From IMG/VR virus record IMGVR_UViG_2740892422_000002, positions 1-35,451 of that record: 35,451 nt of DNA; one strand, written 5' to 3'. Under the pieces are notes generated by a model, which saw nothing but the letters and a program-made list of their open reading frames with translations, ran no database searches and was not told the origin of the DNA. Source of the stretch: a virus. Taxonomy: Duplodnaviria > Heunggongvirae > Uroviricota > Caudoviricetes. The translations under genes and the position numbers were made by a program. Shown here one piece after another: positions 1-34,636 of this stretch; the stretch's first letter is position 1, and each line of letters begins with the position of its first letter.

Positions 1-135
1 ATTGATTTTTCGCGAAACCATTTGATCATATGACAAGATGTGTATCCACCTTAACTTAATGATTTTTACCAAAATCATTAGGGGATTCATCAGCGCGCAG
101 CTCCTTTGAACCATAGCCGACAATCCGGCCTTCAT
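1..135 (-). CDS. mom: mom-like DNA modification protein, N-terminal fragment truncated by the window edge; start codon uncertain (ATG at 133..135 or 88..90)
   Basis: Open frame from ATG 133..135 to position 1 on the minus strand, immediately downstream of com; assignment is by synteny only, protein not recognised by sequence. Confidence 0.4.
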
Positions 136-137
136 AC

Positions 138-323
138 TCAATAACGCAGGGTTTTGTCAGAATGCGTGATTTCTTCTCTTTTCCCACAATACAGCTCCGT
201 GGGATGCTCTTTGGCATTCGATATGACAATGTAACGTTTACAGCGAGGGCATTTAATTTCTATATGCTTAAAACCTCCTTTAAACAGTAATTTATTGCAG
301 TTTTTACAGCGAACAGAGTCCAT
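138..323 (-). CDS. com: Com-like zinc-finger translational activator of mom
   Basis: 61-aa product [61 protein letters not shown] with CxxC...CxxC zinc-finger; closely resembles Mu Com as recalled; AGGGGGAA RBS before ATG at 323. The ORF-track start at 350 is judged an upstream extension. Confidence 0.8.
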
Positions 324-446
324 GATTCCCCCTGTGTAATAACCAGACATGACCGCCCGGAGGGCTGGGGGTATTTAATCACAACCGATGCAAACCGACG
401 ATCGATATGATGTTATCGATCGTCATAAACTATACAAACTGATTAT
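324..446 (-). promoter_or_regulatory. com-mom upstream regulatory region, candidate C-dependent late promoter, with Dam-site palindrome (arms 397..407 and 414..424)
   Basis: Intergenic between the tail-fiber assembly gene stop (447) and com; perfect 11-bp inverted repeat GACGATCGATA/TATCGATCGTC with 6-bp spacer; GATC at 400..403 and 418..421. Confidence 0.5.
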
Positions 447-1036: not shown

Positions 1037-4000
1037 TTACTCAATGCGCACGAACAAACAGATAAAGCCTCTGTCGCCATACGTTCCACGATAACCTGAC
1101 AGGGCCTGATAACGACCGGGAAAACTGAATGCCCCAGCACCACCCGCCTTTACTGAAGGTGTGGAAACATATGTCCCGGAATTATTAATTGCACAGTCGA
1201 TAGCCACAGGACCAAGTCGCGACCCCGCCACTACATCCCCAAGGCCAATTTTTATTTCCTTATCTCCTGCCGCTGTTCCCTGATAGACCGCGAGAATAAG
1301 AGAGCCAACTGCCGGATATTTGTAATATGAGGACGGGCCGTTGCCCGCCGTCCGGGACAGCAGGAAGGCCAGCGAATCGCCGTCGTAAATGACAGGGCTT
1401 ACTGTTGCATTCCAGTTGTTTCCACTCCAGCGATAAGTCAGGCGATGAATACTGTGCTCACCTTCGTAATACTGGTTAAAACACAGCAGCGTTTTGAATT
1501 TACGCGTTGTGTCCGATTCATCGTTATCAAAGGGCGACCACATCACATCAATGATGCCGTTAAATTTTGTGGTTCCTGCCAGTAGTGTGGAAGAATCCGC
1601 AATACTGACCGCATAACGCCCCGGGGTGACCTCTTTCAGCCACTCAGCAAAATCAGCCTGTCCATCAAATGCCAGTGCATCGGTGCTGGTAAATGCCTGA
1701 CCGAACCCATGCATACCAGACAGTGCCAGCCTGCCCGGTGTACGGTCGCGGATATCGCTCTGGGGTTCCATCGTCGCAGCCGCTTTCAGTTCAAGCTCCG
1801 TGCGCATGGCCTCAGACGTGTCCAGCGCCAGTAATGCGCGGGCTTTTTCTGACAGCTGTGCCAGTAAAACCCGGCCCTCTGCACTGAAATAAGGCAGTGT
1901 GTTTTCTTCCGGTGTTATCTGGCTGACAGCCGTTAACATGTCATTAAGCGGCTGCTTACCTGCCAGTGCATTAGTGACCGTTGTCGCAAAGTTCGGGTCA
2001 TTACCCAGCGCCGCTGCCAGCTCGTTCAGCGTGTCGAGGGCTTCCGGTGATGAGCCAACCAGCGCGGCAAGCAGTTTGCGGACAAACTCCGCATTGGCGA
2101 TTTCATTACCAGCTGCATCATCTGGCGGTGTTGGCGTTGTCGGCGTTCCGGTCAGTGCCGGGCTTTTCAGCGGTGCGCGGGTTTCAATCAGCGCCCGGAG
2201 TGAAGCCTCGTTGACTTTCAGGTTTTCCCAGCCAACCAGATAACCATCTCCGGCATTCCAGTAGCGATTGTAATAAATGTGGCCGTTAATACCGTAAAAA
2301 ATAATGATTTTAGCCACATATGCCGGATTGGGGTTGGTTTGAGGCTCCGGCCAGATAATTTCAACGGTACCATTGAACAGCACGCCCTGTATTACCGCAT
2401 TTGTATCTGCATAAACGGCATAGCGACCGGGTTTTGCCGTTTTTACCCAGCGGAGAAAATCGGTCTCTGTTTTAAACTCGGTTCTGTCGCCGCTGGAAAA
2501 TACTTTCCCGAATCCAAACATGCCGGGAATCGCCAGACGGCCTTCGGTGCGGTCGTAAATATTCTCCTGTGCATCCTTCTGTGCTGCATTGCCAAGTTGT
2601 GGCGTCAGATTCGTCCAGGTGACCGGGGCGGAGATATTATCGCCACGAACGGTCATAAGAATCCGTCCGTCTTTTCCAAAAAACAGAACCAGCTTTGTTG
2701 CTGTCTGGCTGGTTTTGTCGTCCCAGCCATTATCCAGCCAGATAATTTCTGTTATTCCGGTCGTCTCTTCCGTTTGTGTGGAAAAGGTGTAATACCGTCC
2801 CGGGTGCAGGTTATGCGCACTTTTGGCTATGGTCGCCATATCGCGGGCAATAATTGAACTTGCTCCGGCGTCCGTCATTCCGTAACCAAATGCACCTGGT
2901 AGCGCAACACGGCCTTCCGTGCTGTCGTAAAGGTCTGTCTGAATGTCCTTTACCGCCGCGCTTTTCAGCTCAAGCTCCGTGCGCATGGCTTCCACTGTGG
3001 CCTGTGCCAGCAGTGACCGGGCTTTTTCTGACAGCGGAGACAGTGAAGCATTCCCGTCCTGATTAAAGCACAGAAGATTATCTGCCCGTTCTTCCAGATT
3101 ACTGATTGCGGTTAACACGTCACTGAGTGGTTGTTTACCCGCCAGCGCGTTCATGATTGTTGTCGCAAACTCCGGGTCATTGCCCAGCGCCGCTGCCAGC
3201 TCGTTCAGTGTGTCCAGGGCTTCCGGTGACGAGTCAACCAGTGCGGCGAGCAGTTTGCGGACAAATGCCGCGTTCGCGGTTTCCAGACCGACTGCATCGT
3301 CCGGTGGGGTTGGTGTGGTTGGCGTACCCGTGAACGCCGGGCTGTCCAGCGGCGCTTTTGTTTTCGTCTCGTCCATGACGGCTTTGACAGCCTTTGGTGT
3401 GGCGGCCAGTTCTTCGCTGTCGTTGTCTGTATCACTACAGAGTTGCACCAGACCTTTTTGCGTCGTGCTGGCGTTGGTTCCTTTCAGGTCATCGACTATC
3501 CGTTGCGCCTCGTCCCTGTGCTGTTTCGCGTTCTGCTCGCTTTTTGCTGCCGCTTCGGCGCTGGCTTTTGCCTCGCCGGTCAGCGTTGCAGCATCAGCAA
3601 GTTTATCGACCGCTTTCTGGACTATCGCGTCAGCATCCTTGACAGCCTGTTCTGCGCGGGCGGCATTCTGGTTTGTTTCAGAGGCCAGCTCTTCAGCTTT
3701 CTGCACATTACCCGCAATTTCTTCTGCATCCTGCTGTATTTCCCCGGCGAGCGCTTCTGTATCCTGGCGGGCCTGTTCAGCAGCGGTGGCGTGCTCTCCT
3801 GCTTTTTCTGCGCTTTGCTGCGCCTGTTGCGCCAGCTCTTCGAATTTCTTCAGGGCTTCCGGGCGCAGGTCAATATCGGTTGCGCCCAGAAAATCATTCA
3901 GCGAACCGTCTGTCGAATCTTCATAAACGCGAATGACACCGATTTCTGAAAGGCGCTGTGTGCTTTGTGTCAGGCGAACGCTGTACACACCCGGCAGAAC

Positions 4001-7552: not shown

Positions 7553-8085
7553 ATGGGCGGTGATGTCTTCTCATTGTCGCCGTCCTTATGAATGTGTTTG
7601 ATGAAAGATTTACCGTTGATTGTGGCATCTGCAGTAAATTCACAGGGACCGACGAATTTCATTTGTTTACCGATAATATTCAGCAATTCGTCGGCGGTGA
7701 GATTTACCGTTTTCCCTGAAACGTTTAATTGTTCTCCTGTGATTTCAATAATTCCGCCTTTCTTTAACGTGATATGCGATTTACCGTCCTGGTGATACAG
7801 CCGGACATCACCGGGGGACAGGCCTTTCGGGCGACATCGCTTGTCCTCCACCGCGATGGCAACCAGCCCGTCACGCCGTCCGCCCACGGCCAGCACGATG
7901 GCTTCAGAACCTTCCGGCGGAACGGAAGTAAACCCGTAGTTCTGGAAGCGTTCCACGTCGTCGTCGGTGGCATCAGCCAGCGTCTGGATTTGCAGGTTCT
8001 GCCGCTCCAGACTGTCAGACACCATGCGCACAACGGCACGGTCAACCAGCAGCCGCAGACGGCGGGCAATTGCGTTTAATCCCAT
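7549..8085 (-). CDS. baseplate assembly/spike protein (Mu gp45-like)
   Basis: 178-aa ORF downstream of the gpD/P-like gene; synteny. Confidence 0.6.
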   Translation of the reverse strand: MGLNAIARRLRLLVDRAVVRMVSDSLERQNLQIQTLADATDDDVERFQNYGFTSVPPEGSEAIVLAVGGRRDGLVAIAVEDKRCRPKGLSPGDVRLYHQDGKSHITLKKGGIIEITGEQLNVSGKTVNLTADELLNIIGKQMKFVGPCEFTADATINGKSFIKHIHKDGDNEKTSPPI

Positions 8086-21108: not shown

Positions 21109-22640
21109 AGTAAACCTCCCTCATTTTTCAGGCCGCGCGTCAGCTTCATCTGGCGGCGCGCGTTGCGTTCTTCCGGTTTCGCCGGGCGGTTCAGGCGGTG
21201 CAGTTCGTAACGGTGGCAGTCATCCTTGCTGGCAAGGAAGCCCAGGAAAATGGCCACAGCGGCGTCGCCGTGACGTTTGTGACCGTCGCTGCCTCTGGTT
21301 CGTGAATCATCAATGCCGGGAACGCCACGCAGTAACTGAATGGCCCCGAGGTCATTGATCACGTCTTCATGCTTCGGAAGGATCAGCTCATCATCTTCAA
21401 ACGCTGCACGGAACCGGGGCATGTTTTCGCGGTAGAACGCCACGGACAGCATCACCTGTTCCACTTCGTCGCCGTACCGCTCCGCCGCCTGTTCTGCCAG
21501 ATACTGACCATTCCCCCGCGCATCCATTTTGATACCGTCACGACGGGGCAGACGATCGCAAAGCCAGAACAGCACCTGCTCCTGCTGTTTAAACGGCACA
21601 TTGCCAAGCTCAACCAGGAACGGCACCTCGCGGGTGGTGTCATCGTTCACCGTCACCGGGGCCAGTACGGTCAGGTCACCCGAACGCGCAAAGTCTTCCC
21701 CCAGACAGTGGCGCAGGTTCTTCGGGAGTTTTTTCAGCTCGGGGCGCACCACCGTTTCCAGCCATTCCCGGATATCTGCCCGGCGCTGGCTTTCCGTCAG
21801 TGCGTTAAATTCCGGTGTGCCGGTAAAGCGCAACACTTTCCCGGTGCCACGGGCCGCACGTTCACGCAGTGAGCGGCGGATATACGTGCCGCCGCCGTTT
21901 TTCGGGACGCAGTAATACTCCTCCAGCGCGTCTTCGCGGGTGGCGGTATTTCGCAGCAGGCCTTCTTTCCATTCCGCCTCGGCTTCCGGTGACCACACCA
22001 TGCCGCGCACCTGACAGATACGTCGGTACAGCCCGTCATTGCAGGCGTCGTCCAGCGTGATGGTGTGAATGCTGTAATCTTTTTTGCCCGCGCGGCTTTC
22101 CTGAATCAGCTGGTTAAACAGGTTGTCCACGCCGTCATGGGTGGAAATAAGGCGAATTTTGCCGCCCCATGTTTTCAGCGGCAGCACAGCCTTCAGCAGC
22201 TCGTCCAGTTTTTCATGGAACGCGGCCTCGTCGATGGTGACATTCCCCTGCATCCCGCGAATGTTGCTCGGGTTGCTGGACAGTGCCTTGACCTTAAAAC
22301 CGCTGGCGAAGTACACGACGAACGTCAGAATGTCCTTGTCTTCGTCGGTGATCACTTCCTCGCAGATTTCTTCCGCTGCCGCATTAAACGCTTTCGCCCA
22401 CATCGCCACAGCGTCGATAAATTCGCGGGCCATCTCCTTATTCGAACCGATATAAAAGTGATCGCGCCCGCCGTCTTCCTTCTTCAGCGATGCCGTCAGT
22501 GCTGCATCTGCCGCCTCCGCCCAGGTTAAACCTGTACGGCGGGATTTCTCGGCGATTTTCAGGTCGGCATCATCCGCCACCCAGCGTTTCTGATACGGCA
22601 GCAGAACATCATATTCACTGAACGTATCCATTTGTGTCAT
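21105..22640 (-). CDS. terminase large subunit
   Basis: 511-aa ORF; ATGA overlap with the terminase small gene; ATPase and nuclease-like regions; position upstream of portal. Confidence 0.9.
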   Translation of the reverse strand: MTQMDTFSEYDVLLPYQKRWVADDADLKIAEKSRRTGLTWAEAADAALTASLKKEDGGRDHFYIGSNKEMAREFIDAVAMWAKAFNAAAEEICEEVITDEDKDILTFVVYFASGFKVKALSSNPSNIRGMQGNVTIDEAAFHEKLDELLKAVLPLKTWGGKIRLISTHDGVDNLFNQLIQESRAGKKDYSIHTITLDDACNDGLYRRICQVRGMVWSPEAEAEWKEGLLRNTATREDALEEYYCVPKNGGGTYIRRSLRERAARGTGKVLRFTGTPEFNALTESQRRADIREWLETVVRPELKKLPKNLRHCLGEDFARSGDLTVLAPVTVNDDTTREVPFLVELGNVPFKQQEQVLFWLCDRLPRRDGIKMDARGNGQYLAEQAAERYGDEVEQVMLSVAFYRENMPRFRAAFEDDELILPKHEDVINDLGAIQLLRGVPGIDDSRTRGSDGHKRHGDAAVAIFLGFLASKDDCHRYELHRLNRPAKPEERNARRQMKLTRGLKNEGGLL

Positions 22641-23218
22641 GCGCTAATCCCCAGAATTTCACGTTTGATGGTGTCAGCCGCACCACCTGACAGACCGCCC
22701 GTTCTGACCAGTTCTTCGGTTTTCTCTGCCATCTCCTGCGCAAACGCATCGCGGATCGCTTTCTCGCGTTTATGGCTGGTCATGGCTGCCGCTTCCAGAC
22801 GCTGGGCAACCAGCGCCAGTTGCCCCAGCGCCTTCGGTGCAACGGGCTTGTCGTCTTCTGCCATCGACATGGACGTTTCAAAGGCCAGCGTTTTCACAAA
22901 CTCCATCAGCAGCTTGCCGACGTCTGACGTCGGCGCGGAACCCAGCTTTGCCGCCCAGACTTCGGCCATTTCGCGGGAGGCGCGGATTTTGGCCCCGACT
23001 TTTTCCATGCGGATGGCATAGCGGTTTAAGCCCGTCCGGCTTAACTGCATCTCTTCCGGCAGGTTGTGTTCGTCAATCAGGGCGTTGATGGCTTCGCGGA
23101 TTTCTTCCTGCGTGTGCCGCTTTTCCCGCAGCATCTGATGCAACTGCTCCCGGATGCTGTCAGGGAGTAAATCCACTTTGGAAAGACGGCCACGGGTGGG
23201 GCGTTGTTCATTTTCCAT
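22637..23218 (-). CDS. terminase small subunit-like DNA-binding protein (Mu gp27/D-like)
   Basis: 193-aa product from ATG at 23218 with AGGAGG RBS (the ORF-track start at 23239 is a GTG); ...SKVDLLPDSIREQLHQML... typical of the Mu-like terminase small subunit family. Confidence 0.7.
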   Translation of the reverse strand: MENEQRPTRGRLSKVDLLPDSIREQLHQMLREKRHTQEEIREAINALIDEHNLPEEMQLSRTGLNRYAIRMEKVGAKIRASREMAEVWAAKLGSAPTSDVGKLLMEFVKTLAFETSMSMAEDDKPVAPKALGQLALVAQRLEAAAMTSHKREKAIRDAFAQEMAEKTEELVRTGGLSGGAADTIKREILGISA

Positions 23219-23355
23219 GTGTGCCCTCCTGTTGCTCACTACGCTGTAAACTTTCGTATGCAGATTTCAGTGCGCCGCTCTGGATTTCCCGCCATGTCAG
23301 GTTGTGCGCCAGACGGCGGAGTTCATCACGGGACGCTTTACTTATCGGATTCTTT

Positions 23356-23657: not shown

Positions 23658-23951
23658 TCAGTCCCTCGCACGGGGTTTCTTAACGCCCGGAACGCTGGAC
23701 AGGCCGTTTGCCACATCCTCACCGCTGCCGGTGATTTCAGCCACGTAACAGCCGCCCACATCAGACAGACGAACCAGCCCCTGCTCGCGCAGCCATGCAA
23801 GCTGGGTGCGCACCACATCACGGGATACCTTATGACCGTAGGCCTGAAGGCAGGTCTGCAACACGGATTCATTCGCGCTGTCGCCACAGTCCAGCAGGGA
23901 ACGCAGCAACACCAGACGACGGTCTTCAGTGAGGATCTCTTTCATCGCCAT
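23658..23951 (-). CDS. hypothetical protein, possible winged-helix DNA-binding protein
   Basis: 97-aa ORF with ATG at 23951 overlapping the upstream stop; helix-rich N-terminal half. Confidence 0.45.
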   Translation of the reverse strand: MAMKEILTEDRRLVLLRSLLDCGDSANESVLQTCLQAYGHKVSRDVVRTQLAWLREQGLVRLSDVGGCYVAEITGSGEDVANGLSSVPGVKKPRARD

Positions 23952-24256
23952 TATTTTTTTTCCTTTAACTCGTTCTCTAATAACAAATCGCTGATGCGGG
24001 ATACCTGGCGGATGGATGGCCCCAGCTCTTTGATTTCTCCCCGCAGGTTGCTGATATCCAGTTGCAGGCGGTGGAACTCATCACGGTCGGGTAAATGGTG
24101 TACCTGGCTTTCCATCACCGACACGCGGGAACGGAGTGAATCAAACTCTTCACGTTTGACGTAGGTTTTCGCCAGAATCAACTGAAGCAGGTTTATTCCT
24201 GTCATCAGCAATGCCCACAGAATGGGCCAGTTGGCTCTGATCATTTCCCAGGACAC
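23951..24256 (-). CDS. membrane-anchored coiled-coil protein (DUF2730-like; candidate lysis accessory protein)
   Basis: 101-aa ORF with N-terminal hydrophobic segment WPILWALLMTGINLLQLIL followed by a charged coiled-coil region. Confidence 0.5.
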   Translation of the reverse strand: MSWEMIRANWPILWALLMTGINLLQLILAKTYVKREEFDSLRSRVSVMESQVHHLPDRDEFHRLQLDISNLRGEIKELGPSIRQVSRISDLLLENELKEKK

Positions 24257-24468
24257 GTTTTCCTCCTGCGTTCACGCATCTGCTGACAGTCAATACAGGT
24301 CACCACATCCGGCAGCGCCGCAAGGCGCTGTGCCGGAATAACGTTCCCGCAGTCATTGCATAAGCCCCGGCTGTGGGGCGCTTCTTTTGTCCGCGTCTGC
24401 CAGGCTTTAACGACGCTCTGACGCTCGTTCAGAACCACTTCACTGATGCGGTCGATTTCGTCGGTCAT
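24241..24468 (-). CDS. TraR/DksA-family C4 zinc-finger protein
   Basis: 75-aa ORF with CNDCG...(17 aa)...CIDCQ motif. Confidence 0.75.
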   Translation of the reverse strand: MTDEIDRISEVVLNERQSVVKAWQTRTKEAPHSRGLCNDCGNVIPAQRLAALPDVVTCIDCQQMRERRRKTCPGK

Positions 24469-25073: not shown

Positions 25074-25486
25074 GGGAAACCTCCATACAGATAACGCTGA
25101 AGACAGAGCAGACCGCCGCAACTGCCACCACACAGCCAGAACACCGGATGCACCGGTGACATCATCATCAGCGTGCTGAAGACGCAGCAGAAATACCCCA
25201 GCGCCCAGACCACCCATGACCACACGATGATGTGGCGACCAAAAGCCCGGTAACGGACTTCAGGCAGCAGGCGAAATGGCACATTCCCGAGGCTTGCGCT
25301 GTATGAAAACAACACCACCCCGGCAAAGGACAACAACATCAATACGAACGATCGCCAGCCACATAACATGCTGATGATGAACATGCAGAGTGTCAGTCCG
25401 GCCAGCGGCCATGGCGTTCTCATCAGTCGGGAACAAATCAGCCAGTCACACAGTTTTAAAATTTTGTTCATTACCTTTTTCCACAT
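25061..25486 (-). CDS. polytopic small membrane protein (candidate holin)
   Basis: 141-aa product from ATG at 25486 with GGGA RBS; three to four hydrophobic segments, Cys/Trp-rich. Confidence 0.4.
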   Translation of the reverse strand: MWKKVMNKILKLCDWLICSRLMRTPWPLAGLTLCMFIISMLCGWRSFVLMLLSFAGVVLFSYSASLGNVPFRLLPEVRYRAFGRHIIVWSWVVWALGYFCCVFSTLMMMSPVHPVFWLCGGSCGGLLCLQRYLYGGFPWIR

Positions 25487-25697
25487 TGAATTTTTCCCTG
25501 TACTTCTGGCACTGCCAGAAAATGTCCCGTGTATCCACGGAGTTCCAGCCACGCATGTAGTAGCTGGCGTGTGTGCCGTCATGGCCTGTATAGTCCAGCG
25601 GTTTCGGGGGCGGACCTCCGGCCATGCGGTGCAGAACCTCCTGACGCAGGCGGTCACGCCGCCCGGCTTTCAGTGAGGCATCCCAGCCTTTACCCAT
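25446..25697 (-). CDS. hypothetical protein (lysis cluster)
   Basis: 83-aa ORF whose ATG at 25697 follows the endolysin stop; no transmembrane segment or lipobox. Confidence 0.4.
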   Translation of the reverse strand: MGKGWDASLKAGRRDRLRQEVLHRMAGGPPPKPLDYTGHDGTHASYYMRGWNSVDTRDIFWQCQKYREKFNVEKGNEQNFKTV

Positions 25698-25698
25698 A

Positions 25699-26283
25699 TC
25701 ACCCCCGCGTGGCGGACATGATGCCCAGAGGGGTAAGACAGGCGTCGGTCAGCTTTTCCATGCGGTTAAACCAGCCGTTCAGGTATTTGCCCTGGGCGGG
25801 TTTTGATTTGATGATGTCGGCATAAAAGCGGGAACGACGGACAATACAGCGGGCCAGCAGCCAGTCAGGGGTGGACTGGCTCACGGCCTTGCGGGTACGC
25901 GGCCCGATGATGCCGTCAGCATCCACATCAGCGGCCTCCTGCAAAAGTTTGATAGCCTTTTTAACGCCATGCTGAACCGCCGCATCAAACACAAAAAGCG
26001 CCACGCCATCAGGCCACTGGTCACACCCGGCAGGCAGCCAGTAATCGCGCCAGTAAATCTGCGCAACCTGTTCGCGGGTCAAATCCTTAATGCGGGTATC
26101 CGGTTTGCCGTCGCCGTTGACGTCGGTTTTGCCGTCAATCACACCGTCGCGGCGGTCAGAAATGCCGTATTTGGTTTCGCCGCCACGGTCAGTGGGGTCA
26201 TTGACATAGACGCCTTCGATATCGGGACGCAGAATGAAATTCAGCGCATGTTCAAAGGCCGGGGAGAATTTTTGATTTTCCAT
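25699..26283 (-). CDS. endolysin, glycoside hydrolase family 108-like with C-terminal peptidoglycan-binding domain
   Basis: 194-aa ORF; N-terminal ...ALNFILRPDIEGVYVNDPTDRGGETKYGIS... matches the GH108 catalytic motif; no signal or SAR sequence. Confidence 0.8.
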   Translation of the reverse strand: MENQKFSPAFEHALNFILRPDIEGVYVNDPTDRGGETKYGISDRRDGVIDGKTDVNGDGKPDTRIKDLTREQVAQIYWRDYWLPAGCDQWPDGVALFVFDAAVQHGVKKAIKLLQEAADVDADGIIGPRTRKAVSQSTPDWLLARCIVRRSRFYADIIKSKPAQGKYLNGWFNRMEKLTDACLTPLGIMSATRG

Positions 26284-26338
26284 AAAAGCACCTGTGAAGC
26301 AGATTTAAACGTGGTCTGCTTCATGGTGCCGGAGGCAT

Positions 26339-26362
26339 AAAAAAAGCCGGATTTACCGGCTT
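26339..26362 (-). terminator. Rho-independent terminator-like hairpin with U-tract (copy A of a duplicated element)
   Basis: Minus strand AAGCCGG-TAAAT-CCGGCTT followed by T-run; lies between the secreted-protein gene stop (26385) and the endolysin start (26283). Confidence 0.6.
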
Positions 26363-26384
26363 CATTGAATATAAGGTTATTGGT

Positions 26385-26882
26385 TCAGTTAACTTTACGG
26401 GCAGAACACGTAGTCTTCATTACTGAACGTTCAATTTTTATCTTCCAGCCATTTACTGTTTTTTCGACAGGATCATCTTCAGCTTGCTTTAAATTTTTAA
26501 CTTGCATGAAATTCAGCGGGGCTGGGGTATCATCGTCCCATGATGTCGGGCGAACATAATCAGGGACAACAAAAGGCTCAAAAACAGTTTCACATAAAGC
26601 AGACGTCATTTGAGCGAACTCGTCGCTATCGGGGCGAACCGGTCCTGTAACATACTGCATTTTTATGTTGATTTCGTTATCTCGCACAGACGTCTTTAAA
26701 TCCTGATATACACCTAAGTTAAATCCTTTAAACTCAGCAATGGCAGCGTCACCTTTACCGTACCAGTCGGTATAGTCAACGGATGTTTTTTTCTGAAAAA
26801 CATCTTTGACTTTTTGCTGGAATGTATCCGCCGCTTGTACAGTAGTAACAGTTAGTAAAAGAATAAGGGGAAGATATTTCAT
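26385..26882 (-). CDS. secreted/periplasmic protein of unknown function (AT-rich moron)
   Basis: 165-aa ORF with N-terminal signal peptide MKYLPLILLLTVTTVQA|AD; markedly AT-rich relative to flanking phage genes. Confidence 0.7.
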   Translation of the reverse strand: MKYLPLILLLTVTTVQAADTFQQKVKDVFQKKTSVDYTDWYGKGDAAIAEFKGFNLGVYQDLKTSVRDNEINIKMQYVTGPVRPDSDEFAQMTSALCETVFEPFVVPDYVRPTSWDDDTPAPLNFMQVKNLKQAEDDPVEKTVNGWKIKIERSVMKTTCSARKVN

Positions 26883-27280
26883 TGTTCGTCCTTAAATAGT
26901 TGCATTTGATATTTTCCACGCTCCAGTCGGCGCATTCTTTTGATGGCCTGATATACCGTTTTGTATGTCACTTTGTAACGCTGCACCAGCTCCGCTACGT
27001 TTTTCCCATCAAAATCACGCCAGATGCGCATGTCTCTGATAAGATTTTCCAGTATTTTCCCTTTCGGAACATATACCTGAATCCCACCGATATGATTGCA
27101 AATCGCCACTACCAGCTCAAGGGAGTGGGCAGGGTTAACTCCAAGCCTTATCAGCTCTTGTCGCAACAGAGCATTCAGCTCAGCCAGTAAAGATGGAAAT
27201 CCCGATTTTTCCTGAACATCATCAAAATATTCAAGGATACTGTCGTCCTGATAATCACCAAATAAATCCTGCTCTTTCAT
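26879..27280 (-). CDS. mor: Mor/C-family transcriptional activator
   Basis: 133-aa ORF with acidic N-terminus and C-terminal ...AHSLELVVAICNHIGGIQVYVPKG...YKTVYQAIKRMRR... resembling Mu Mor/C; located directly after the gemA-like gene. Confidence 0.7.
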   Translation of the reverse strand: MKEQDLFGDYQDDSILEYFDDVQEKSGFPSLLAELNALLRQELIRLGVNPAHSLELVVAICNHIGGIQVYVPKGKILENLIRDMRIWRDFDGKNVAELVQRYKVTYKTVYQAIKRMRRLERGKYQMQLFKDEQ

Positions 27281-27828
27281 AGAACTATTCTCCCGCTGTT
27301 TCTGGCGCGGGCATACGCACTGGTCAGTGCATCATATCCGCGCAGTTCCCGCCCGGTTTCGCTCACAGGTAAAGGCACGCCGTGTCGGGCAAAGGCTTCC
27401 CGAATGCAGCGCATATGCCACTGCTTGAGCGTTTCGAGCACAACCTGCAACGATTCCCCATGACACCAGGCCAGCGTGGAAACACCCTGACCACCATTAC
27501 GTCTGGCCGTCAGACGTTCAACGTATTTGTCCAGCGCGGCGTCGCTGATATCGGAGACGAAACCATCAAGAAACATCTGCTGCCAGATTTTATAAATCTT
27601 CTCGCGCGGTGTGACATGCCCCTTAAAGCGACGGCGGGGATGTTTTTTCTGCTTTTTAAAACCGCGCTCTTTCATGGCATCGAGCACTTGTTCCAGTTGT
27701 GCAACAGACAGCTCGCGGCAACTGGTTTTGCCCGTGCACTGCACCAGAAAAGCTCGGTAAGTGTCATCGTCGAGTTGCAACTCCCGACGGGCAACATGAA
27801 TTAATTTAATCAGGGATGTGCGGCTCAT
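27277..27828 (-). CDS. gemA: GemA-like early protein
   Basis: 183-aa ORF immediately upstream of mor, matching Mu gemA in position and size. Confidence 0.6.
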   Translation of the reverse strand: MSRTSLIKLIHVARRELQLDDDTYRAFLVQCTGKTSCRELSVAQLEQVLDAMKERGFKKQKKHPRRRFKGHVTPREKIYKIWQQMFLDGFVSDISDAALDKYVERLTARRNGGQGVSTLAWCHGESLQVVLETLKQWHMRCIREAFARHGVPLPVSETGRELRGYDALTSAYARARNSGRIVL

Positions 27829-28141: not shown

Positions 28142-28316
28142 TTCTTAATACCTCTTCGCAATAAAAGATTTCATTGGGATAACGTTTTTGTATGCGCTCA
28201 ATCACCTGCATACATGCCTGCTCTGTGGGCCAGATTTTTTCTGTTGCCGGGATAGCATCACAGGCATCACTCCCGCAGGTGCCAACCAGCAGGACAAAGC
28301 CAATTGACTTAATCAT
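28119..28316 (-). CDS. small secreted or lipoprotein-like protein
   Basis: 65-aa product from ATG at 28316 (MIKSIGFVLLVGTCGSDACD...): N-terminal hydrophobic segment followed by Cys, with four further Cys. Confidence 0.45.
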   Translation of the reverse strand: MIKSIGFVLLVGTCGSDACDAIPATEKIWPTEQACMQVIERIQKRYPNEIFYCEEVLRNENTDDY

Positions 28317-28851
28317 GTTCACTGACTTCCTGTGTTGCTGCCGGAGCTGGTGAATAATCAAGAATGAGATAGCGCATGACGTGGTCGGTGATATTCCAGC
28401 CACTGGAACCACAAATAAAGCGCCCCAGCCGGATATCGATATACGCCATCACAAAACGGGGCATCCCCTGTTTGCACATCTCGTCATCCACTTCAGCAAC
28501 GATGTAAACCGACTCGCAGGTCAGTACGCCTGTCGCAAATTCTTTTGCCAGTGCCGGAATGGCATTGCCTTCCAGCCAGGGCAAAGAGCGGCGGAACGCG
28601 CACCATTGAGCATTATCAACAGCGGGGTGTTCCGTTGTTGCGTTTCGTCTTACTGGCGGCGTTGGACGAGGGCGCGGAACGTCATAAAATCCGTTACATT
28701 CAGTGAGAACTCCGGCATCAACCGCATCACGCAGGAAATACACCATTGACGAGGGCAGCATATTCATTTTTTCAGCCAGAACCCCGCAGGTCAGACGCCC
28801 GTAAGCCCGTAATAATGTGCTGACACCATTCAGAACTTTTGCATCAACCAT
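28309..28851 (-). CDS. hypothetical early protein, possible winged-helix N-domain
   Basis: 180-aa ORF; first gene after gam and a 98-bp spacer. Confidence 0.5.
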   Translation of the reverse strand: MVDAKVLNGVSTLLRAYGRLTCGVLAEKMNMLPSSMVYFLRDAVDAGVLTECNGFYDVPRPRPTPPVRRNATTEHPAVDNAQWCAFRRSLPWLEGNAIPALAKEFATGVLTCESVYIVAEVDDEMCKQGMPRFVMAYIDIRLGRFICGSSGWNITDHVMRYLILDYSPAPAATQEVSEHD

Positions 28852-28949: not shown

Positions 28950-29474
28950 TTAAATACCGGCTTCCTGTTCAAACGGAATAATAGAAAAATCTTCAATGCC
29001 TGATTTAACTGTAATTCCGGCGACACCTGCGACTGCTTTCGGTTCCAGTAAAATCGCTTCCTTGTTGATTTCCTGTTTCGTGCGAATAAAGCGTTGCAGG
29101 CCAAGACGCTCCAGCGTTTCCATCACCGCATCCACACCGCGAATACTTACCGATGGTGGGCGCTGACGCCATGACACATCGCCGGTTACCAGGTTCGCCG
29201 TCTTCACCTTGCCGCCGTTCGTCAGTTCGTCGCGGTTCGCTTCACACCATCCCTGAACGCCTTTTGAAAGGGTTTCAATACTGGTTTTAAGGGGCGCAAT
29301 CTGTGAGGCGTATTTCTCAGTAATTTCAGCGATAGCGTCATTCATTTCCGTTTCAAGTCGTGCCGCTTCGCGTTGCAGGTCACCAATCCGGCGAATATCA
29401 CACACCACGGCATCGCGGGATTGCGGAACATAAGCTGCTGCGGCACTCTTGATTCGTTTTGCTGGTTTAGCCAT
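28950..29474 (-). CDS. gam: host-nuclease inhibitor Gam (Ku-like DNA end-binding protein)
   Basis: 174-aa ORF MAKPAKRIKSAAAAYVPQSRDAV... with coiled-coil; matches Mu Gam in length and sequence as recalled. Confidence 0.85.
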   Translation of the reverse strand: MAKPAKRIKSAAAAYVPQSRDAVVCDIRRIGDLQREAARLETEMNDAIAEITEKYASQIAPLKTSIETLSKGVQGWCEANRDELTNGGKVKTANLVTGDVSWRQRPPSVSIRGVDAVMETLERLGLQRFIRTKQEINKEAILLEPKAVAGVAGITVKSGIEDFSIIPFEQEAGI

Positions 29475-30340: not shown

Positions 30341-31279
30341 TTACGTGCGCAGCAGGGTTGAAATATCAACGTCGAGGTCTAATTCACGGAAAGCCTGACG
30401 CAGATAATCTTCATTAACACGTTCACCTTTGCCGTGGGCGGTCATGGCCGCAAGGCGCAGCGAGTGGTTCAGGATGCGAAGCGCACCTGGTTTTTGCGCA
30501 ATCTGCTGTAATAATTCCCGCTCGTTTTCGCCGGTAATTTGCCAGGCATCCGCAATGGCCTTTACATCATCAATTTTGGTTTTATTGATTGCCGTCCGTT
30601 TGGCAATACGGGAAAACAGTCGGGCAAATTCAACCGTTCTGTTACCACCGGTCATGTTTGAATAAACGCGGTGATTCCCCATCAGAACAAGGCCAATACG
30701 GGCGGATTCCTGCAACAGGCGGAGTTCTTCCAGAACTTCAGCGCCAAGATGATCAGCTTCGTCGATAATGACCAGCCCCTGCGTACCTTCAAGGCGGCGT
30801 CGCAAAGCGCGGGAGAGCGGCCCTTTGCGGCGCGGTGCGTCATTCATTCCCAGTTCATACGCCAGTTCAGTGAGACATTCCAGAACACTGGCGCAGGATG
30901 GGGTAATGGTGATCATCCAGACATTGTTATTGGTGCGACGAAATTCGCGGGCTGCTTCAGTTTTTCCCACACCTGGATTACCGCAGATAACAGAAATACT
31001 TTCAGTCAGGCTGGCAAAACGCATACTCGTCCAGATTTGGCGTGCTGTTCTGGTTTCCACAAAACGTGGTGGTTCTGGCAGCTCTGCGGCACGGTGATAG
31101 TTCTCCAGCCAGCGTTCCAGCGTCTGCGCAACACGTTCATTGTCGCCGTTGTACTTGTTATTCACGAATGCGCTTAACGTTCCTGCGGCCACGCCAGACT
31201 CGCGTGCAATTTGTGCATAAGTCGCTTTTTCACTTTCTACAAGCGTGCGCAGTCCTGCGCGAATATCGGAAATATTCAT
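30341..31279 (-). CDS. B: transposition ATPase / target DNA activator MuB
   Basis: 312-aa ORF with Walker A GNPGVGKT and Walker B IIDEADHL; near-identical to Mu B as recalled. Confidence 0.92.
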
Positions 31280-31317: not shown

Positions 31318-33309
31318 TTAAATGGCTTTTTTACGTCTGTTCTGTTCCAGAATATCCAGCGAATGATTCAGATATTCATCACGATCAGTTTCATATTCAT
31401 CATCGGGTTCCTGGTATTTCACCTGCACCGTGTTACCGGAAGGCCGGAAAATACCAACAACCCTTGATTCTGGCGCTGCTGGTTCGGCTATCTGCGGCAG
31501 CAGTTCAGCAATTTCCAGCGCGTCCATTTGTTTCTGCGCCTTAATGGCTGCTTTAGTTGCAGATTTCAGTTGTTTCTGGCGGCGGCGATATTCACGGCCT
31601 GCCGCAGCATCATTAAACGCAACAGGTGCCAGACATTCCGCTTCACAGATAAACCGACCGTCCAGGGTGTAGCAATAAACCGTGCTGTGTAGCTGTTGTG
31701 GATCAAATCTGACCACAACTTTTTTCACTCCGGCATTCATTAACGCCATGTTGTAATAAACGTTTTTCGCGCCTTTAAGGGAGCCGCCAACTTTAAGCGT
31801 AAACTCGCCTTTGCGTGAAACGTTCACCGCCTCGGCAGGCAGTAACAGCATCCGTTTTTGTTCTTCGGTTGGCTTACGCACAATCGTTCTGGCGTATTCA
31901 CGCTCGAAAACATCATCAAACGAGAGTTTGCCCCCGCACATTTCTGTTTCACGGCCTGTTCTGGCATTGAACATCGCCACACCTTCGGCAAGGGTTTTCA
32001 GAAACAGCTCTGCATCAACAGCGCGGTCGCCATAGTTATCAGGTTTTGCCTGCGGATTTGGCCCCGTATATGCGCCAGCCAGTGCCGGATGCTTATCAAC
32101 GTATTCCTCAAGCCCACCAACACCGAAAGCACGTTCAACAGGTTTTGCCTGGCCCCAGCCTTTACCGGCAACAACGCTTGTCCAGTGCATTTTCGCGCCC
32201 ATCAGTAAAAACAGTCCCTTTGGATCGTCCTCTTTTACCTTAAAGCGGTAACGATTGGGCGCGCCTCCCGTCAGCCATTTATTCGCTGCACCACGGGTGT
32301 TATCAATGGTGATGTGAAAATCCTCCGGGATACCGTAGCGAGTCACAACATCCATGAACGAGAGGCGAATTGAATCAATGTTCTCGCTCACATCGCAGCG
32401 CCAGCCCAGAATTTTTCGGGTTTTCACATCCTGCCAGAACCATGTTTTCGGGCGGATCACATCACCGTTAAACCAGCGTACAAAGACGTTATGCAGATAA
32501 CCGTCGCCGTTGATCCACTGCATGGCGTCCAGGTGTTCCACAGTTCGTTGCTGTGCCGGTATCAGATGCATCAGTGCATGTTCACCTTCACGGCAGGCAA
32601 CAACCATTGCCTCGTCCAGTTGCTGAATCCGGCGAAAGGCCGTGGCACGGGAGGGAATATTCCAGTCATGCTCACGTGCTGCCAGTTCCAGACGCTCATA
32701 ACATTTGCGAAAGGCGGGTTTTTCCGGTCGCAGATAATCTGCAATCAGAAACTGCCAGGCATCCTCGTCAAATTCACTTTTGTGAACGTTGCGACGGGAT
32801 GCACCACGGCCATCAACAAGCGCAGCCGCCCAGTCAGACTTCGCAAACTTCTGTACCTGGTAATATTTGTCCCGCAAAGTGGATGCGCTGACCTGGTAAT
32901 GTCCAGCAACGGTCGCAAATGCCGTTTTCGTTGAAATCCCCTGGTTCAGCATTTCGTCTGCAGCCTGAACCGCAGGCAACCATTTTTCAGCAAGTCTGCG
33001 CTGGGAATCGCTGGCGTTATCCCATTTGCTCCACAGTGCCTCACGATCATAATCATGGGCTTCCAGCGTGGGGCGGGCGATTTCAAAACGGCCCAGGCTT
33101 GTTTCAATCTCTCCTTGTCTAAGCAATAACGCCGCTTTCGCTTCAACAGGTAAAGAGTTAGCATTGTATTCAATTGCTTTACCTCCTTTGACACCTGCTC
33201 TAGTGCGGTTTTGCCATCCTTGCTTTTTAGCGACATAAATCACACCAGCTGATGTTTTCGGCAAGCCAGGAAGATTCGCACACTCTTTCGGTGACACCCA
33301 AAGTTCCAT
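31318..33309 (-). CDS. A: DDE transposase MuA
   Basis: 663-aa product from ATG at 33309 ([15 protein letters not shown]...), one nucleotide after the ner stop; matches Mu A. The ORF-track 685-aa version carries a spurious 22-aa N-terminal extension. Confidence 0.92.
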
Positions 33310-33310
33310 A

Positions 33311-33538
33311 TTATTCACCTGCTTGATATCGGCTAGGCCAGATGACTTCCGGTTTAGTTTCAAGGGCGTTAGCAATAATCTGTTCGCCCTTTGGCCAGTG
33401 CCGTTCTAGCGCATTAGCTAATGTTGTTGGCGCATAACCAAACTGCCGAGAAAGAGCTGATAAAGAGAGCTTTCTTTTCTTAAGTCCCGCAATCACATCA
33501 GCACGATGCCAATCACGGACCTTTTCGTTGGAACACAT
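33311..33538 (-). CDS. ner: Ner DNA-binding regulator (negative regulator of early transcription)
   Basis: 75-aa [55 protein letters not shown]...; matches Mu Ner. Confidence 0.9.
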
Positions 33539-34456: not shown

Positions 34457-34636
34457 GCAACTGCTTTTCGTATGTTTAATGAAACAAAAGCCATTTCTAA
34501 CAATCTTTCGCGTTTCAATGCTTAACGGCTAAAATTTGTTCTACAGGCTTGCAAGCCCCACCAAATCTAATCCCGTCAAATCCCGAATAATCCAATATCC
34601 TCCCGGTTTTTTTCGTACTTCTCGTGAATCAATACA
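34457..34636 (-). other. Mu left-end (attL) region with terminal MuA-binding sites; terminus at 34636
   Basis: Minus strand from 34636 reads TGTATTGATTCACGAGAAGTACGAAAAAAACCGGGAGGATATTGGATTATTCGGGATTTGACGGGATTAGATTTGG..., matching the Mu left end with a few substitutions. Confidence 0.85.

Follow-up and report, generated by a model that had tools for sequence, protein, structure and literature searches.

The DNA analyzed here is IMG/VR virus record IMGVR_UViG_2740892422_000002, a stretch of 35,451 nucleotides (the window), all of which is a Mu-like Escherichia coli prophage with its genes on the minus strand. Our subject is the junction between its early and later genes, where a gene for a predicted exported protein, ORF165 (26385-26882, minus strand), lies between the sole gene for a Mor/C-family activator and an endolysin gene. 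Read along the minus strand, the region begins with a gemA homolog (27277-27828; Pfam GemA, 9.1e-33), an early-operon gene and the upstream neighbor of mor (26879-27280; 133 amino acids), in the same order as in Mu. ORF165, which belongs to an orphan family and is the last gene of the early operon, follows directly, and beyond it comes a composite element (26336-26366) made up of a Mor box, a hairpin and a T7 run. The first gene 3' of the Pm-like promoter predicted in this element codes for an endolysin with GH108 and PG_binding_3 domains (25699-26283), and a Mu E18-like gene (25446-25697) follows the endolysin gene. An earlier note on this DNA, made without database searches, had described a Mor-like gene, the AT-rich ORF165 with its signal peptide and the endolysin gene in a row; all three are there at the coordinates stated, on the minus strand.

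The product of mor matches the Pfam profile PF08765 over 105 of the 107 profile positions (E=6.6e-30, 103.7 bits versus a cut-off of 24.9) and is 63% identical to Mu Mor (E=4e-61), as against 32% to Mu C (E=2e-17); its sequence clearly marks it as a Mor ortholog, not a C. We searched 676 stop-to-stop open reading frames (ORFs) of at least 30 amino acids, taken from all six frames, with phmmer (--max) and with Mu Mor, Mu C and the window Mor as queries; none contained a second family member, the next match after mor having an E-value of at least 0.2. A profile hidden Markov model (HMM) of Mor plus C gives mor at 1.5e-69 and the next ORF at 0.65, again with no second member in the window. The Prokaryotic Genome Annotation Pipeline (PGAP) annotation of the complete prophage in E. 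coli ETEC1732, to which window positions 90-34636 are 99.98% identical, likewise has one Mor-family protein only. The three approaches agree with the earlier note that there is a single Mor/C regulator and no C, and no distinct C homolog emerges from the HMM search of the window or from the annotation of the complete ETEC1732 prophage. We reject the possibility of a C gene encoded outside the window, as that complete prophage has none annotated. By these searches, the second Mor/C paralog downstream of Pm that marks a Mu-type three-step cascade is absent.

The element beyond ORF165 is homologous to the Mu early terminator (9.2 kb) and to the Mor site of the Mu middle promoter, Pm. Its sequence GAAGCCGGTAAATCCGGCTTTTTTT begins 20 bases past the ORF165 stop codon and folds into an 8-bp stem with a 5-nucleotide loop, followed by a U7 run (folding free energy, dG, -12.6 kcal/mol; z -3.7). 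In Mu, gemA-mor is likewise followed by a hairpin, AAGCCGGT(T/A)AATCCGGC, with a T-run. The Mu equivalent, AAGCCGGTTAATCCGGCTTTTTTT, is located just 9 nt past mor, whereas in the window a 498-nt gene is inserted at this point. GenBank AF083977 labels the Mu element both as a terminator (9179-9200) and as lying within the Mor-activated middle promoter (9163-9233). The Mor site is a 16-bp sequence in which two 5-bp inverted repeats flank a G/C-rich hexamer, centered at -43.5 and spanning -51 to -36, and Mor-dependent promoters possess a -10 hexamer but lack a -35 hexamer (PMC4390567, PMC4287176). From the GenBank annotation and the published coordinates we infer that the Mu box registers as AGTAA-AGCCGG-TTAAT, with TATCCT 22 nt downstream. 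The window box, AATGAAGCCGGTAAAT (26351-26366, minus strand), overlaps the 8-bp-stem hairpin (26343-26363) and reads AATGA-AGCCGG-TAAAT. It shares with Mu the 16-bp 5-6-5 dyad, the G/C-rich spacer AGCCGG and the lack of a -35 hexamer, and a candidate -10 hexamer, CACCAT (26323-26328, minus strand), lies 22 nt past the box, at the same offset as TATCCT in Mu. The site thus has the makeup of a Pm-type promoter at the sequence level, and transcription is predicted to start near 26315. Unlike in Mu, C, E19 and gp20 are absent from the window, and the predicted promoter reads directly into the endolysin, lysis and head genes.

The same kind of site recurs among the late genes. A second full copy of the element (18600-18643, minus strand) is found between the head-morphogenesis gene and the gene for the head protease/scaffold (17604-18566, minus strand; annotated as phage protease), which is the homolog of Mu I and the first gene after this second promoter. 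This copy combines the box AGTGAAGCCGGTAAAT (18628-18643; AGTGA-AGCCGG-TAAAT) with the same hairpin and T-run and a candidate -10 hexamer, CATACT (18600-18605). The 19-mer AAGCCGGTAAATCCGGCTT occurs twice without a mismatch, at 26344-26362 and 18621-18639 (0.02 expected by chance), and a 26-nt identity, TGAAGCCGGTAAATCCGGCTTTTTTT, spans 18616-18641. In both full copies a G+C-rich hairpin directly precedes the U run, as in intrinsic terminators (z -3.7 and -3.2). The second copy, which is retained in diverged relatives, stands where Mu has its C-dependent late promoter PI; the PI core is kept (CCGCAAACTGAC in Mu versus CCGCATACTGAC in the window), and the upstream C site is swapped for a Mor box. 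Ahead of gene I, Mu thus has a C box and the window a Mor box, and C-type boxes (TTAT-N5-6-ATAA or CATAACCCC-like) are not the pattern seen before the late operons. In the 213-nt gap that holds this copy (18567-18779), the motifs GTTTTTGAAG and GGTTTTGAAGGGG also occur repeatedly, upstream of the Mor box; the strong gyrase site of Mu occupies the corresponding gap.

A candidate third promoter (7673-7721, minus strand) lies within the baseplate V (gp45-like) gene. Its box region, TTTCAGGGAAAACGGTAAATC (7701-7721), agrees with the second copy at 18 of 21 bases and contains the box AGGGA-AAACGG-TAAAT, with TATTAT 23 nt past it; there is no hairpin, and the sequence does not fold. The site surfaced only through a half-site pattern. 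A 21-mer search allowing up to three mismatches returns three sites in the window against 0 expected by chance, and no more full copies of the element emerge from a strict 26-mer search or from a 16-mer search requiring at least 11 of 16 matches. The third site is ~26.9 kb from the left prophage end, to be compared with 27.3 kb for the Mu late promoter PP; it is absent from Mu gp45.

The sites are shared with Klebsiella phage Kp4866-3 (OK490420.1), which resembles the window in having gemA, mor, a cargo slot, the element, GH108 and E18-like genes, membrane proteins, TraR and gp25 (50-70% protein identity), with Mor boxes at the Pm-like position, ahead of gene I and within gp45. The gene I copy of this phage differs from that of the window in lacking the hairpin: the 16-bp box (AGGGA-AAGCGG-TTAAT) is kept with GACACT downstream, and the right arm of the hairpin is lost. 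Therefore, conservation and selection appear to follow the box, not the terminator. The third site is kept in Kp4866-3 gp45 together with CATTAT, and in a further variant of this site the -10-like TATAAA persists despite different encoded amino acids.

A scan of IMG/VR recovered 123 copies of the element in 118 stretches; C was scored as a match to Mu C within the fetched DNA. The element lies upstream of GH108 in C-less contexts in 76 copies and between the head-morphogenesis gene and gene I in another 21 (17 confirmed, 4 at contig edges), none of either kind being accompanied by a Mu C match. Such matches accompany 11 of the 13 Mu Pm-type copies and 8 of the 10 copies arranged as in the Yersinia phage vB_YpM_5 (MT374853.1); the remaining 3 copies are at contig edges or unclassifiable. 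Across the 123 copies, the second base of the hexamer 22 nt past the box is almost always A and the sixth almost always T (for example CACCAT, CACTAT, CAAAAT, CATGAT, CATACT and TATCCT). Like the window, vB_YpM_5 has mor, the same element and GH108-like and E18-like genes (2223-3541), which in this Muvirus lie between Pm and C. Unlike the window, it keeps C, with a Mu-type lysozyme after it, and in it the element follows mor without any cargo gene. In its layout it seems to stand midway in evolution between Mu and the phages without C.

Taken together, we think it probable that the window represents a C-less Mu-like lineage in which the lone Mor drives the late genes through repeated boxes, as a two-step cascade, and in which ORF165 is an early, Sec-exported periplasmic cargo protein. 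The early operon would close with gemA, mor and ORF165, followed by the hairpin and T-run; the single Mor would bind the candidate boxes, recruit RNA polymerase and switch on the late genes directly. C would be unnecessary because Mor would activate the late operons itself. One of two possibilities raised in the earlier note, direct activation of late genes by the single regulator, gains support in this way from the predicted Mor-box promoters before the late operons. The termini of Mor are suggestive in the same context. Mu C requires two clamp-binding motifs (QHDLF and QPDLF), whereas Mu Mor has the N-terminal DLF only (PMC12867686). The window Mor has EQDLF at its N-terminal end (27263-27280) and QMQLF at its C-terminal end (26879-26915). 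The alleles beside empty slots and the distant alleles end in QPDLF, as in Mu C; the motif of Mu Mor is QPSLL. The lone Mor may thus be clamp-coupled in the manner of C.

Several points count against this interpretation. A Mor box before com and mom was looked for and none was found; Mu uses C there. Mu Mor does not activate late promoters (PMC4287176), so that direct late activation in this lineage depends wholly on the change of box type. The third site is in coding sequence and specifies a conserved peptide, (S/T)GKTVN, by which part of its conservation is explained. The candidate -10 hexamers are weak and individually unconvincing, although such weakness is expected of activator-dependent promoters. 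Exactly where the Mor box falls on the hairpin is itself our reading of the GenBank annotation and the published coordinates. As for ORF165, its Sec signal (charged N-region, core and small residues at -3/-1) was judged by inspection of the sequence, and a weak internal promoter could still be active in lysogens.

The stop codon of mor and the ATG of ORF165 share bases (ATGA), and AAGGA stands 6 nt before the start; the gene is translationally coupled to mor. The G+C content is 40.4% in ORF165, 43.3% in mor, 48.6% in the early region, 56.7% in the late region and 54.2% in the prophage; the AT-rich block extends over mor and is not confined to ORF165. The first 17 residues, MKYLPLILLLTVTTVQA (encoded at 26832-26882, minus strand), constitute a predicted signal peptide: MK, with its Lys, is followed by a 13-residue hydrophobic core (YLPLILLLTVTTV) and by V-Q-A, with the predicted cleavage falling before AD. 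ORF165 contains no lipoprotein signal cysteine or motif, and a hydrophobic N-terminal segment is found in all 12 family members. AlphaFold2 gives the protein a confident fold, with a predicted local distance difference test score (pLDDT) of 84.7 and a predicted template modeling score (pTM) of 0.78, residues 1-18 falling below a pLDDT of 50. We accordingly predict an exported product of ~148 amino acids with two conserved cysteines. The conserved features of the family are the signal peptide, DWYxKGD, WDDD and NGW motifs, and the invariant C97 and C159. The ratio of nonsynonymous to synonymous substitution rates (dN/dS) against an 85%-identical allele is 0.18; hence, ORF165 is a functional gene under purifying selection.

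This family is small: it makes up six clusters in an index of 5.8 billion proteins, an exhaustive HMMER search of 1.84 billion proteins found nine representatives, and 185,579 species-representative genomes gave two matches (Trabulsiella and Yersinia). Wherever the context is readable, the member is flanked by mor and the GH108 gene in a Mu-like prophage that lacks C, and this applies to the distant ones too (34-41% identity; E. coli, Citrobacter freundii and others); one (P0014) is known from a 3.8-kb contig in which no neighboring phage genes are identifiable. ORF165 has no match in Pfam, PHROGs or NCBIfam, and PADLOC returns only a sub-significant ZorB (E=0.0024). There is no tblastn match among 50,697 phage records, the family profile finds nothing below E=0.3 among Protein Data Bank (PDB) sequences, and a Foldseek search of BFVD with the model gives nothing at E of 0.001 or less. 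None of these sequence and fold searches points to a described superinfection-exclusion or anti-phage defense family. In a distant relative, GCA_900129625.1 (2757-4105), mor is followed by a gene for a 169-aa protein with a hydrophobic N-terminus and only then by the ORF165-family member. Between the two cargo genes come a hairpin of variant sequence, AAAAAGCCGGTTTTTCCGGCTTTTTTT, and a gap of 235 nt in which TTGACA occurs, and this family member may be independently transcribed.

The position after mor behaves as a swappable cargo slot. In E. coli it holds ORF165 in nine genomes and a 159-aa secreted protein in ~21, and it is empty in ~14. The gene for the 159-aa protein, which likewise has a signal peptide, also overlaps the mor stop codon; in the empty-slot relatives Mor has a short C-terminal extension and the box comes directly after. 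Of 95 IMG/VR loci in which mor precedes the element, 34 are empty (a class that includes the Mu-type and vB_YpM_5-type loci, in which mor abuts the element), 22 have a membrane protein, 27 a 165-aa secreted protein and 12 a member of the ORF165 family. In Kp4866-3 the slot differs from that of the window in holding a 110-aa membrane protein with three hydrophobic segments (32% G+C). The similarity of the window to the other E. coli slot classes ends at the 3' end of mor or just within the signal peptide, and similarity to empty-slot and other-class relatives resumes at about window position 26371, just before the box. The mor gene varies along with the cargo: its G+C content is 43% beside ORF165 or the 159-aa protein and 51% in empty-slot relatives, and synonymous divergence (dS) is ~0.36-0.40 for mor and ORF165 versus 0.15-0.17 for the flanking genes.

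In size, signal peptide and the presence of two cysteines at similar positions, the remaining secreted proteins of the slot are like ORF165, although the comparisons made do not establish homology to it. The 159-aa and 165-aa secreted proteins are distant relatives of each other (19% identity, E=8e-5). Between ORF165 and the 159-aa protein, hhalign aligns the first 41 residues only (71% probability), and the BLASTP match is restricted to the signal-peptide region; the AlphaFold2 model of the 159-aa protein is poor (pLDDT 57), with an order of secondary structure elements similar to that of ORF165. A more far-reaching proposal, which we regard as possible but rather doubtful, is that Mor has wholly taken over the role of C through the late Mor boxes and a C-like clamp motif, late transcription being coupled to replication through one protein. 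The slot would then house periplasmic proteins made early, all from one rapidly diverging superfamily (~160 aa, with a signal peptide and two cysteines in matching places), which could serve as allele-specific exclusion or envelope-modifying factors that travel with particular mor alleles.

Under the two-step reading that we favor, ORF165 would be transcribed with mor from the early promoter after induction, and its product would be exported via Sec, possibly disulfide-bonded, and active in the periplasm on an envelope-related target. Our guess is that it has an accessory envelope function, in exclusion or receptor masking during lytic growth. Small exported or envelope-acting exclusion proteins of an accessory nature, dispensable and variable among related phages, are known in Llp of T5, Sp and Imm of T4 and Sim of P1; Llp and Sp are made early in lytic infection. 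The parallel with ORF165 is one of function only, as no similarity in sequence or fold to these proteins was found and ORF165 has no lipoprotein motif.

The earlier note had called ORF165 an AT-rich secreted-protein moron. In lambdoid phage genomics a moron is an extra gene with its own promoter and terminator that is expressed from the prophage; such a gene, acting from the repressed prophage, could alter the host surface or phage sensitivity by lysogenic conversion or exclusion. ORF165 is like a moron in its deviant base composition (40% versus 54% G+C), its variable presence among near-identical prophages and its predicted export. Moreover, the family member in GCA_900129625.1 could have its own promoter in the gap after the terminator hairpin, and the Mu gem operon may escape full repression. 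The regulatory parts are what ORF165 lacks. The overlap with mor leaves no intergenic space, and a consensus scan for sigma-70-like promoters in and near mor (minus strand, 26880-27580) found none, though so crude a scan may miss weak ones. The terminator that follows is a conserved phage element also present in empty-slot relatives, and the product has no similarity to known exclusion or defense families. As its start overlaps the mor stop and the gene lies upstream of the terminator/Pm element, ORF165 is best taken as the final gene of the early operon, lacking its own promoter, and we consider an autonomous moron unlikely. The AT-richness, accessory nature, variable presence and export signal claimed for it stand; its status as a moron does not. 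Nor does ORF165 occupy the place where Mu carries C, as had been proposed: it is the tail of the early operon, upstream of the early terminator/Pm element, and the endolysin gene takes the first middle-operon position. The layout predicts early lytic expression, and the idea of a lysogenic-conversion factor is thereby weakened.

A different objection concerns the boxes: the repeated hairpins could be mere intrinsic terminators at operon ends, with late activation left to another factor, such as the TraR/DksA-type protein encoded at 24241-24468 or a host factor, or to read-through. Both full copies are indeed canonical terminators (8-bp stem, U7 run, dG -12.6 kcal/mol), the candidate -10 hexamers are weak, and the TraR-family gene, absent from Mu, is part of the lysis/head operon. 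However, in Mu this element has been defined by experiment as the Mor site of Pm (PMC4390567). The copy that precedes gene I in the Klebsiella phage has the Mor box without a hairpin, the third site is entirely free of one, and nearly all 123 copies have, at a fixed offset, a hexamer whose second base is A and whose sixth is T. We therefore deem this explanation quite improbable. TraR/DksA proteins work via the secondary channel of RNA polymerase and do not recognize promoter DNA. The TraR-family gene also lies downstream of the very promoter it would have to activate, and we reject its product as a substitute for C on both grounds. There is only a slim chance that ORF165 and the alternative slot proteins control lysis timing as periplasmic partners or inhibitors of the GH108 enzyme: the family is always immediately upstream of the GH108 gene, and early synthesis of a predicted periplasmic product would put it in place ahead of the endolysin, but the two genes belong to separate transcription units, and relatives with the same GH108 gene (91-96% identical) often have an empty slot or a wholly different cargo, so that ORF165 is not needed for lysis.

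The remaining genes of the prophage are also read on the minus strand. The early genes include those for the transposase A (31318-33375), B (30341-31279), Gam (28950-29474) and a gp11-like protein (28309-28851). After the E18-like gene come genes for membrane and holin-like proteins, the TraR/DksA-family C4 zinc-finger gene (24241-24468; TIGR02419, 61 bits), for which no counterpart was identified in the Mu annotation, a gp25-like DUF2730 gene (23951-24256) and gp27 (22637-23239), followed by the terminase, head, tail and fiber genes. On the strength of the alignment to the ETEC1732 prophage, the left prophage end is placed at 34636 (junction 34636/34637). That prophage (NZ_CP122823.1, 2159665-2194913) sits in flhA and splits this flagellar export gene, as does the one in ETEC1734, whereas the window copy occupies another chromosomal site; the backbone is present in ~59 of 5,426 complete E. 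coli genomes. The intact element in ETEC1732 terminates with com and then mom. The window has lost ~600 bases from the end of the prophage, which belong to mom, to an IS10-type insertion at ~93; in ETEC1732 the missing stretch contains mom alone. Window positions 1-93 come from the end of this insertion sequence, which interrupts mom, and read as the reverse complement of CTGATGAATCCCCTAATGATTTTGGTAAAAATCA. Many plasmids, R100 among them, each have two places that match this end at 100% identity. Similarity to the intact ETEC1732 prophage starts at position 90. The region before com (323-446, minus strand; com at ~137-322) has three GATC sites, comparable to the Dam/OxyR-controlled mom promoter of Mu. 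A C-box-like AAATACCCCCAG was noted in this region, with no Mor box alongside.

Mu-like phages without C are not new. In the Pasteurellaceae phages Mannheimia 3927AP2 and phiMhaMu2 and Haemophilus SuMu, a GH108/PG_binding_3 lys gene comes immediately after mor, and middle genes such as C are missing (PMC4553209); the observation of a single regulator is, in this sense, already described. These phages have distant hosts and sequences, and they are likened to the window by description only (PMC4553209). That report includes no account of a cargo slot and no promoter or Mor-box analysis. In the literature searched we found no description of Mor boxes taking the place of C boxes at late promoters, of the intermediate vB_YpM_5 layout or of the cargo slot. 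The arrangement is a tidy variant of known phage biology and does not overturn current understanding.

Its interest lies in what it suggests about the evolution of the Mu regulatory cascade. The slot after mor is a hotspot in prophages of E. coli, Klebsiella and Citrobacter, filled by different exported or membrane proteins, and is thus a compact source of envelope-acting accessory functions. The natural promoter variants should be useful for dissecting the specificity of Mor versus C, and there is an opportunity to ask whether late transcription under a single Mor is coupled to the clamp, as it is under Mu C (PMC12867686). Mu is the textbook model of a cascade with early, middle and late steps, and this lineage suggests that such a cascade may be shortened through a swap of the activator box at the late promoters, not through the acquisition of a new factor.

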